Origin: an uncultured Gammaproteobacteria bacterium
GTDB taxonomy: Bacteria; Patescibacteriota; Patescibacteriia; UBA9934; GWF2-40-263
Assembly (NCBI GenBank): GCA_964374035.1
Contig: CAYJWY010000001.1
Location: 1-63,913, forward strand
DNA length: 63,913 nucleotides
Direction of reading: 5' to 3'
The translations under genes and the position numbers were made by a program. How positions within the stretch are numbered: position 1 is the stretch's first letter; the number at the start of each line of letters is the position of its first letter. A model generated the notes under the pieces. That model saw only the letters and a list, made by a program, of their open reading frames with translations. It did not search any database and was not told where the DNA came from. This document shows, piece by piece, positions 55,335 to 55,442 of this stretch.

Positions 55335-55442
55335 GCAAGACAAGATGGATGCTCTCGGAAGGAACGACAGCGACAGTCCCATCGTCGCCAAGGCTATGAT
55401 GGGCAGGCCGGCGGCCCGGAGACAGCGTGCATCTTGTCTCGC
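55335..55442. repeat. H-family element in the ybaB-recR spacer
   Basis: The termini are gcaagacaagatg and catcttgtctcgc. The core is cgacagtcccatcgtcgccaaggctatgatgggcaggccggcggcccggagaca. Confidence 0.85.

Follow-up and report, generated by a model that had tools for sequence, protein, structure and literature searches.

A putative lineage-specific hairpin repeat with a conserved apex on variable paired arms in Candidatus Uhrbacteria

Results

A hairpin element between ybaB and recR

The DNA analysed here (the window) is the whole 63,913-nucleotide stretch of contig CAYJWY010000001.1 from GenBank assembly GCA_964374035.1, a genome referred to below as G000. In the spacer between its ybaB-like gene and recR lies a hairpin element, with the ybaB stop codon 6 nt before it and the recR ATG 6 nt after it (Table 1). 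An earlier note on this DNA had described the same core in a second copy within mnmA, closed by a different but still complementary stem, with both copies on the + strand, sense to recR and antisense to mnmA. All of this holds. The window contains the 20-mer CGACAGTCCCATCGTCGCCA exactly two times, at 30257 and 55371 and each time on the + strand (0 expected from 100 shuffles), and the cores, of ~70 nt, show 93.5% BLAST identity over 62 nt. The closing arms of the mnmA copy are paired at 14 of 14 positions, while the outer 13 positions of the spacer copy contain a single mismatch, an A-C on the + strand that would become G-U on the - strand. In both copies pairing runs up to the core, with 19 pairs each (the spacer stem, counted outward from the core, gives the pair string WWWUWxWWWWWWWWWWcWW). 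The predicted + strand folds reach -50.1 kcal/mol for the spacer copy (z = -3.0 vs shuffles) and -63.3 kcal/mol for the mnmA copy (z = -5.7).

These two copies are not the only ones. A BLAST search of the whole 983-kb assembly found a third full copy (91-93% identity) on another contig, inside tgt and antisense to it, in the same reading frame as in the mnmA copy. The element leaves the mnmA frame unbroken and adds the peptide GETGVLSPSRRPAHQSPGDDGTVAVVASDNTPVSP to MnmA and DETGVTSPGRWPAHHSLGDDGTVAVVASQTSPVSS to Tgt.

The earlier note had called the closing arms unrelated in sequence, and this does not stand. When the arm pairs of the mnmA copy (GGTGAGACTGGGGT / ACCCCAGTCTCACC), the tgt copy (GACGAGACAGGGG / CCCCTGTCTCGTC) and the spacer copy (GCAAGACAAGATG / CATCTTGTCTCGC) are set in register, (G/A)AGAC is common to all three. 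The mnmA and tgt copies have GAGAC(T/A)GGGG arms in common and differ by one compensated T:A to A:T change, and the spacer arms depart from those of mnmA by five or six double changes, all compensated, and by one G to A that is not. With the tgt copy as intermediate, 5-6 of 11-13 pairs are identical and the remainder are compensated double changes. By this alignment the arms of the three copies are homologous and heavily diverged with compensation; spacer and mnmA copies differ by ~50% in the arms and by 6.5% in the cores.

Fold, covariation and strand asymmetry

The fold begins with a basal stem, P1, of ~13-24 bp and a closing GUC/GAC helix. Above these follow a symmetric purine internal loop (GGA/GGA), a GGG/CCC helix, an AA bulge and, at the top, the 6-bp helix P2 (CANCGG/CCGNUG, with a habitual mismatch) capped by a 7-8-nt loop. 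Over 67 distinct copies 93.1% of positions are paired, compared to 32-42% when the partners are slid by 1-3 columns. All 21 P1 pairs are changed on both sides among these copies, as they are in the seed alignment, and the observed covariation score was reached by 0 of 500 column shuffles; these counts take the copies as independent and ignore shared descent. Many stems are unrelated in sequence, yet perfect over 17-22 bp. Higher up, three copies have GUG/CAC in place of GGG/CCC, the second P2 pair is A-U in 57 copies against G-C in 10, and the third P2 pair is the habitual mismatch, A.A or G.A, in 30 of 67. A further 17 independent metagenome copies have the same pairing and strand pattern. 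Collecting the copies and building a covariance model thus revealed covariation in all 21 basal pairs (judged against slid controls and column shuffles), and the 67 copies exclude the fortuitous pairing that the earlier note had allowed for. [quoted passage not shown] The ~40-nt apex would then be the sequence-specific part of the element, and the basal stem would need only to pair.

The mismatches within the stems are strand-asymmetric. On the GTCGGAGGG strand the raw count is 64 G:T vs 16 A:C, and counting each position and context once gives 46 G:T vs 16 A:C (binomial p = 2e-4), with G(5'):T and T(5'):G equally frequent. Stability predictions favour the apex-forward strand over its complement in 59 of 61 copies, with RNA and DNA parameters alike; for the arms alone it comes out more stable in 36 copies, less stable in 13 and the same in 12 (p = 3e-5). 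Since a symmetric process at the level of the duplex is expected to give a 1:1 wobble ratio, the relevant state would be a single strand of defined polarity, or this strand would be single-stranded more often than the other, suggesting that the fold of one strand is constrained. Selection on a fold, as the earlier note had proposed for either RNA or DNA, is therefore backed as far as a one-strand fold is concerned, by covariation, the 46 to 16 ratio and the 59 of 61 copies. The free orientation relative to flanking genes, the flipped apices and the lack of an Rfam family (see below) speak more for single-stranded DNA or a selfish element than for an RNA that acts in cis within host transcripts.

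Family and distribution

The core was compared by BLAST with 60 relatives, in which the match was limited to its first ~30 nt. The relatives carry a shorter form, in which a 40-nt apex, GTCGGAGGGAACARCGGCGACAGTCCGNTGGCCCGGAGAC, stands between complementary 13-24 bp arms that differ from copy to copy. The apical module of the window copy is homologous to this apex (CTCGGAAGGAACGACAGCGACAGTCC ... GGCGGCCCGGAGAC) and is split by a 30-nt hairpin, CATCGTCGCCAAGGCTATGATGGGCAGGCC, added after GTCC in the apical loop. This nested hairpin is common to all three G000 copies and occurs in G000 only. Independent hairpin expansions of 14 nt and 44 nt are found at the same point of the apical loop in single copies of G008 and G079. 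Element length ranges from 76 to 108 nt.

A covariance model made from 16 copies was searched over 73 genomes of the family (all assemblies are metagenome-assembled genomes, MAGs, whose contigs tend to break inside the element). It matched in 13 of the 73 genomes and 5 of 29 genera, with more than 170 copies in the 13 genomes and 1-31 per genome where present. The genomes of genus g8 hold 27, 16 and 28 copies and those of genus g24 hold 23, 11, 31, 20 and 0; G087 has 3, genus g6 has 0-1 per genome, and genus g1 has 3 (G000) and 1. Copies are scattered 1.5-60 kb apart between housekeeping genes. Among 185,579 GTDB species representatives the apex pattern occurs only in Candidatus Uhrbacteria MAGs, one 'Parcubacteria' MAG and two third-party annotation (TPA) MAGs labelled Gammaproteobacteria. 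The 17 further copies lie on JGI/ENA metagenome contigs from Uhrbacteria/Parcubacteria-type MAGs, and the long-form pattern, with the nested hairpin, was not found in JGI metagenomes. On these searches the element appears to be specific to one family of Candidatus Uhrbacteria.

In one genome a contig begins with six element units arranged head to tail (G082:C3:5-425), with a period of 69 nt (40-nt apex plus 14-15-nt arms), and these tandem units are open in several frames.

Landing sites and the inserted unit

At the ybaB-recR junction the sister species G001 (RecR 82% identical) has a 6-nt empty site, TAA-aaacct-GTG. Because this site is empty, the G000 copy is a later insertion, made after the split of the two species. 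The flanks read cgcgtt[element]ctgtgt in G000 vs aaacct in G001. Stop and start overlap or nearly adjoin in G004, G002 and G013, and in G062 a copy is present, reversed and further upstream. In G006, G064 and G063 the junction holds other, unrelated palindromes or short repeats, those of G006 and G064 being palindromes of 55 nt and about 150 nt. Strain-level insertion polymorphism was also sought here and none was shown: the two Logan contigs with an identical YbaB (ERR4904390 and ERR3478686) both end inside the element, 77 nt past the stop codon, and a RecR look-up gave no match. The foot of the hairpin returns the ybaB stop and the recR start to within ~12 nt of each other, which may explain why an insertion of 108 nt is tolerated.

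The MnmA loop between its anchors is 26 aa long, TGHYARVEEGRILKGIDPNKDQ, when empty (G004, G024, G064) and 62 aa long in G000. The loop thus grows by 36 aa, and mnmA and tgt copies have their arms in common; from this the inserted unit is the element as a whole, with its arms. Two other origins were considered. Insertion of the apex into pre-existing host hairpins is excluded by the shared mnmA/tgt arms, by the empty MnmA loop being 36 aa shorter and by the lack of empty hairpins, no GCGGTTGTGCCAT-type stem without an apex being present in 676 kb of G008 and G079. An arm arising as an inverted target duplication was rejected on the AACAGGAG/CTCCTGTT extension in tgt of G064 and G062, which is the consensus arm plus 4 bp.

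In Tgt the site lies in a loop between RSLRW..K and LFGIVQG. The apex is antisense to tgt in G000, G001, G064, G062 and G079 and sense in G006 and G024, the copies being in frame in all 7 genomes; the loop is empty in G013, G004 and G087 and holds 7-nt microsatellite-like runs in G002, G065 and G033. A further coding copy lies in frame within an 816-aa open reading frame. On direct reading of the sequence all coding copies are in frame and all six apex frames are open; both orientations and different frames are used, and the copies encode no one conserved peptide. Intergenic copies make up about 80% of the total, 7 of them lying between convergent genes vs 2 between divergent genes. The occupied sites most plausibly act as a filter, permissive spots at which harmless insertions are retained.

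The same places hold other repeats. In-frame 7-nt runs of CCTACAA, CAACTCC and CCAACTA stand at permissive spots, the mnmA loop of G008 holds another hairpin, TGTCATTGCGA...TCGCAATGACA, and the Tgt loop, the MnmA loop and the ybaB-recR junction are filled by unrelated small repeats in different genera.

Evolution at orthologous loci

We compared loci between species, the orthology of some of them being based on flanking genes only. Seven loci of G008 were followed, of which six are occupied in G062 and most in G034. The coding flanks are 68-90% identical, and the insertions are therefore old. At two loci (Q5 and Q7) the apex is inverted between orthologous copies with homologous arms (GGGCCGGGTTTTAACAT vs GGAGCCGAGTTGAACTAT in Q5), and within one genus the tgt apex is sense in G006 and antisense in G064. 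Apex subtypes, with the loop CGACAGT, CGAGGAGT or CGAAGAGT, track species and not loci: G062 has the loop CGAGGAGT with P2 CAGCGG/CCGCTG at at least 6 loci, where the G008 orthologues have CGACAGT and CCGATG. At Q3 four consecutive inner pairs differ together with the apex subtype, all of them compensated, next to nine identical outer pairs. At Q6 the intergenic flanks are unalignable, the arms ~33% different and the apex ~10%. From the sequences this looks like concerted evolution, in which the middle of the hairpin is converted or replaced, plus inversion in situ between the arms. The apex would be either under purifying selection at every copy or homogenised among copies.

Candidate identities and partners

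No known RNA family accounts for the element. Rfam gave no match at the gathering score on the window and, at E <= 5 on 10 loci, only sub-threshold noise of the miRNA hairpin type. An intrinsic terminator, SPRITE-like forms included, was rejected as well, with a T-tract after 6 of 59 copies, an A-tract before 4 of 59 and no T-tract at the window copy. Candidate proteins were sought by their domains. Mobilisation by the transposases associated with repetitive extragenic palindromes (REPs), known as RAYTs, which the earlier note had suggested, fails, as does mobilisation by IS200 transposases: PF01797 (Y1_Tnp) is found in 49 of 73 genomes and has no match in four that carry 11-23 copies, namely G024 (20 copies), G079 (23), G080 (11) and G034 (16). 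Hairpin DNA derived from a retron or reverse transcriptase was set aside since PF00078 (RVT_1), present in 51 of 73 genomes, is absent from G024 (20 copies) and G080 (11). A GGA decoy that binds CsrA was rejected because PF02599 is absent from all 73 genomes. Only housekeeping genes lie between close copy pairs, where an autonomous partner might have been found.

Orientation is tied neither to transcription nor to replication. Among intergenic copies 10 are co-oriented with both neighbours and 7 are anti-oriented to both. The relation to GC skew is opposite in two contigs: the forward strand is on the G-rich strand in most copies of G079:C10 and on the C-rich strand in all eight copies of G008:C1.

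Other repeats in these genomes

G000 contains a second, smaller hairpin family of ten copies, with the tip CGTCGC(C/T)AA(G/A)GCTATG on 4-6 bp stems that vary between copies. The tip itself covaries (GCC..GGC to GCT..AGC), and each of the three main-element copies has one of the ten nested in its apical loop. On contig C7 there is a group I intron, matched to Rfam RF00028 with 56.1 bits (more than the gathering score), which bears the CGTCGCCAAGGCTATG tip on a peripheral hairpin and adjoins a tRNA-like 3' end, at which ARAGORN called no tRNA.

A multi-copy repeat of ~150 nt lies about 130-290 nt upstream of an element in G008 (C10, near 149.3 kb). It ends in ...GATCGTTCGAATCCTCTGTTCGCCGACA, which is T-arm-like, occurs at least 8 times in G062 and at least 6 times in G034, and has no Rfam match; at the orthologous G062 site it is absent together with the hairpin element. 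G008 contigs C1 and C10 also carry a perfect palindrome, AATCACACTTAACTNCCGATCG|CGATCGG..., in six copies over 394 kb, and TGTCATTGCGAGG...-type hairpins with 57-62-nt loops.

Table 1. Positions of the hairpin element and of associated features in the window and elsewhere in G000
Feature	Position	Strand	Remarks
ybaB-like gene (PF02575)	55029..55328	+	upstream of spacer copy
Whole hairpin element, ybaB-recR spacer copy	55335..55442	+	108 nt; covariance-model match 55336-55441, 44.6 bits, E = 1.8e-8
Basal stem 5' arm, spacer copy	55335..55353	+	outer 13 nt gcaagacaagatg (55335-55347)
Conserved apical module, spacer copy	55354..55423	+	aligned to short form of relatives
Nested 30-nt hairpin, spacer copy	55380..55409	+	catcgtcgccaaggctatgatgggcaggcc; after GTCC in apical loop
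Basal stem 3' arm, spacer copy	55424..55442	+	outer 13 nt catcttgtctcgc (55430-55442)
recR	55449..56051	+	downstream of spacer copy; ATG at 55449; orthologues in 11/12 relatives
mnmA	29538..30761	-	host gene of second window copy
mnmA copy	30223..30326	+	core 30240-30309; covariance model 61.1 bits; in frame, antisense to mnmA
Arm, mnmA copy	30223-30236	+	ggtgagactggggt
Arm, mnmA copy	30313-30326	+	accccagtctcacc
tgt copy	C5:~829-934		inside tgt
Y1 transposase gene	39952-40224		in window
Smaller hairpin, window	30269-30284; 55383-55398		
Smaller hairpin, G000	C5:876; C7:4979; C3:8386; C4:13589; C9:11544; C13:19243; C15:4729; C23:6668		
Group I intron, G000	C7:~4818-5034		RF00028

Discussion

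Our preferred reading, in which we place about even confidence, is that the element is a non-coding, non-autonomous and lineage-specific hairpin repeat, akin to REPs, MITEs and Rickettsia palindromic elements (RPEs), that is selfish and is recognised in single-stranded form via its apex. One strand, that reading GTCGGAGGG..., would become single-stranded and fold, and the element would persist or spread through that state. A trans-acting factor would recognise the apex of the folded strand. Single-stranded DNA at replication or repair is more likely to be this state than RNA, because orientation is free relative to transcription and the apex flips without apparent cost. Insertions would survive only at permissive places, which are intergenic gaps and, when the length keeps the frame, flexible protein loops; at the window copy the permissive place would be a translationally coupled junction whose stop and start are reunited by the hairpin.

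Several observations weigh against this reading. No target-site duplication is visible at the single clean empty/filled pair, where the flanks are strongly diverged. There is little sign of recent mobility, most loci being common to the species of one genus. Across the 73 genomes the presence of Y1_Tnp/RAYT and RVT_1 does not track the element, and no protein family recurs beside non-orthologous copies. The apex is ~90% identical between genera and at old loci, where the arms are up to ~50% diverged and the intergenic flanks are unalignable. Such conservation would not be expected of a purely selfish relic, unless copies are homogenised by conversion.

The element might instead be a structured RNA that functions in its own right, be it a small RNA, an mRNA element acting in cis or a new motif that cleaves itself or binds a protein. 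Selection on the RNA fold would then maintain the variable helices as well as the conserved purine-rich internal loop and apex. Covariation in every helix, the core included, speaks for this, as does the excess of G:U on one strand. Conservation extends to non-canonical features, namely the GGA/GGA loop, the AA bulge and the habitual mismatch (A.A or G.A), and hairpin expansions of variable length occur at one fixed loop position in three genera, like the expansion segments of structured RNAs. The element is moreover kept at orthologous loci in genomes of ~0.9 Mb, with the apex better conserved than arms or flanks. We nevertheless consider an RNA unlikely, since there is no orientation rule with respect to the flanking genes (10 co-oriented, 7 anti-oriented) and 5 genomes carry the tgt apex in antisense and 2 in sense orientation. 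Where the apex is flipped between orthologous loci, its complement would be what host transcripts contain. Further points against it are the lack of an Rfam family even at E <= 5, the lack of a conserved promoter, T-tracts at only 6 of 59 copies, the patchy spread (5 of 29 genera, and anything from 0 to 31 copies in a single genus), and the absence from all 73 genomes of CsrA, the obvious GGA-binding partner.

A different kind of explanation, which we find similarly doubtful, requires no selection on a fold. Here pairing would be kept up mechanically: each arm would be corrected from the other by template switching within the strand or by mismatch repair of the hairpin, with gene conversion exchanging the middles between copies, so that compensated changes, flips and homogeneous apices would all be by-products. 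The inverted apices between homologous arms of orthologues (Q5, Q7, and tgt in G006 vs G064) are what such a process would leave behind. The same can be said of Q3, at which four inner pairs and the apex subtype change together beside nine identical outer pairs, and of apex subtypes that are specific to species rather than loci; several unrelated families of perfect palindromes in the same genomes are also in its favour. However, correction of one arm by the other predicts Watson-Crick pairs without a one-strand preference for G:T, and 46 to 16 was observed. Nor does it explain the conserved unpaired and mismatched apex positions across genera, or how the sequence of the apex itself is kept up.

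A further proposal, which on present evidence we hold to be distinctly improbable, is that of a new kind of site in the chromosome, or of RNA, which does its work as a folded single strand, with a structure-specific module (GGA/GGA loop, bulge and apical loop) on an arbitrary stem. If so, it would be kept at fixed loci in the streamlined genomes of Candidate Phyla Radiation (CPR) bacteria, possibly as a recombination, priming or repair site for a protein or as a small ribozyme or protein-binding RNA, and its persistence in tgt across four genera would reflect function and not entrapment.

It is very improbable that we are dealing with an element of the REP/REPIN type mobilised by the RAYT-like Y1 (HUH) transposases of this genome. 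The window does contain a Y1 transposase gene, G000 has others elsewhere, and HUH enzymes recognise folded single strands, which would fit the strand asymmetry. Against this, PF01797 is missing from G024, which is 100% complete and has 20 copies, and from G079, G080 and G034, whereas at least 36 element-free genomes have it; palindromes of other kinds (GCTACCSGGTAGC and a 23-nt REP) reportedly flank the RAYT genes in G000, and there is no conserved tag at the foot of the hairpin. Chance similarity or a local duplication of two copies, for which nothing speaks beyond two copies 25 kb apart in one window, can be dismissed, with 0 matches expected by chance, a third copy on another contig, more than 170 copies in 13 genomes and unrelated flanks.

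What usually defines small interspersed palindromes is the conservation of their ends or stems, the handles of the enzyme, and in this family the rule is inverted. Its structured 40-nt tip is the conserved part, on a paired stem that is free to change, and the fold of one strand is clearly preferred. The coding copies would bring to CPR bacteria what is known from Rickettsia, selfish DNA that is read through in proteins, and the same few permissive spots (Tgt loop, MnmA loop and ybaB-recR) have been colonised repeatedly by unrelated repeats. With more than 170 copies, and orthologous loci in several species, the family offers a natural data set for parting selection on a fold from mechanical upkeep of a palindrome. 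In practice, the element breaks assemblies and inflates protein lengths in CPR MAGs.

Comparison with known systems

The RPEs (Ogata et al. 2000 and 2002, summarised in PMC10969869) resemble the element in being hairpin-forming repeats of ~100 nt in a bacterium with a small genome, without a transposase of their own. They too are sometimes found in frame in housekeeping genes, as here in tgt and mnmA, and are read through (PMC10969869). The phylum is a different one, however, and the likeness is one of description. Here most copies (~80%) lie between genes, those in genes have no conserved encoded peptide, being in both orientations and in more than one frame, and it is the apex that is conserved while the ends vary.

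REPs and REPINs with their RAYTs, and the palindromes tagged GTAG or CGTC, are likewise short, interspersed, mostly extragenic and sometimes intragenic (PMC3733652). REPs are recognised as a folded single strand, and those of the CGTC type have no dedicated transposase (PMC3733652), as is the case here. REPs are however 20-40 nt long, with a conserved stem, a tetranucleotide tag at the foot and a short loop (PMC3733652), whereas here foot and stem are variable, a structured 40-nt apex is conserved and there is no association with Y1/RAYT.

With the classical MITEs (Correia, RUP, ERIC) the element shares a non-autonomous, multi-copy nature, a patchy distribution between species, a fold into a long hairpin and occasional in-frame fusions (PMC10969869, PMC3184786). 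MITEs retain their terminal inverted repeats, which serve as transposase sites, and give rise to target-site duplications. In our element conservation is lowest at the termini, with variation in all 21 terminal pairs, and no duplication was seen at the site compared. ERIC copies reportedly show compensatory substitutions and conservation above that of their flanks, and would be the nearest precedent.

Integron attC sites are imperfect palindromes of 57-141 nt, recombination sites that are read as a folded single strand, with structure counting over sequence and strand choice set by unpaired bases. Their boxes R''/R' (RYYYAAC / GTTRRRY) stand at the foot and the top is variable, the reverse of what we find; there are no cassette arrays here, and no link to an integrase was found, though intI itself was not searched for. 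Lastly, flip-flop hairpin loops are known as small inversions between short inverted repeats in plastid DNA and as the flip and flop forms of parvovirus terminal hairpins. They share with our element an asymmetric palindrome middle that occurs in both orientations between homologous stems. Those cases are, however, neutral loop inversions or products of hairpin-primed replication of linear genomes, whereas here the part that turns over is a conserved 40-nt module in a bacterial chromosome.

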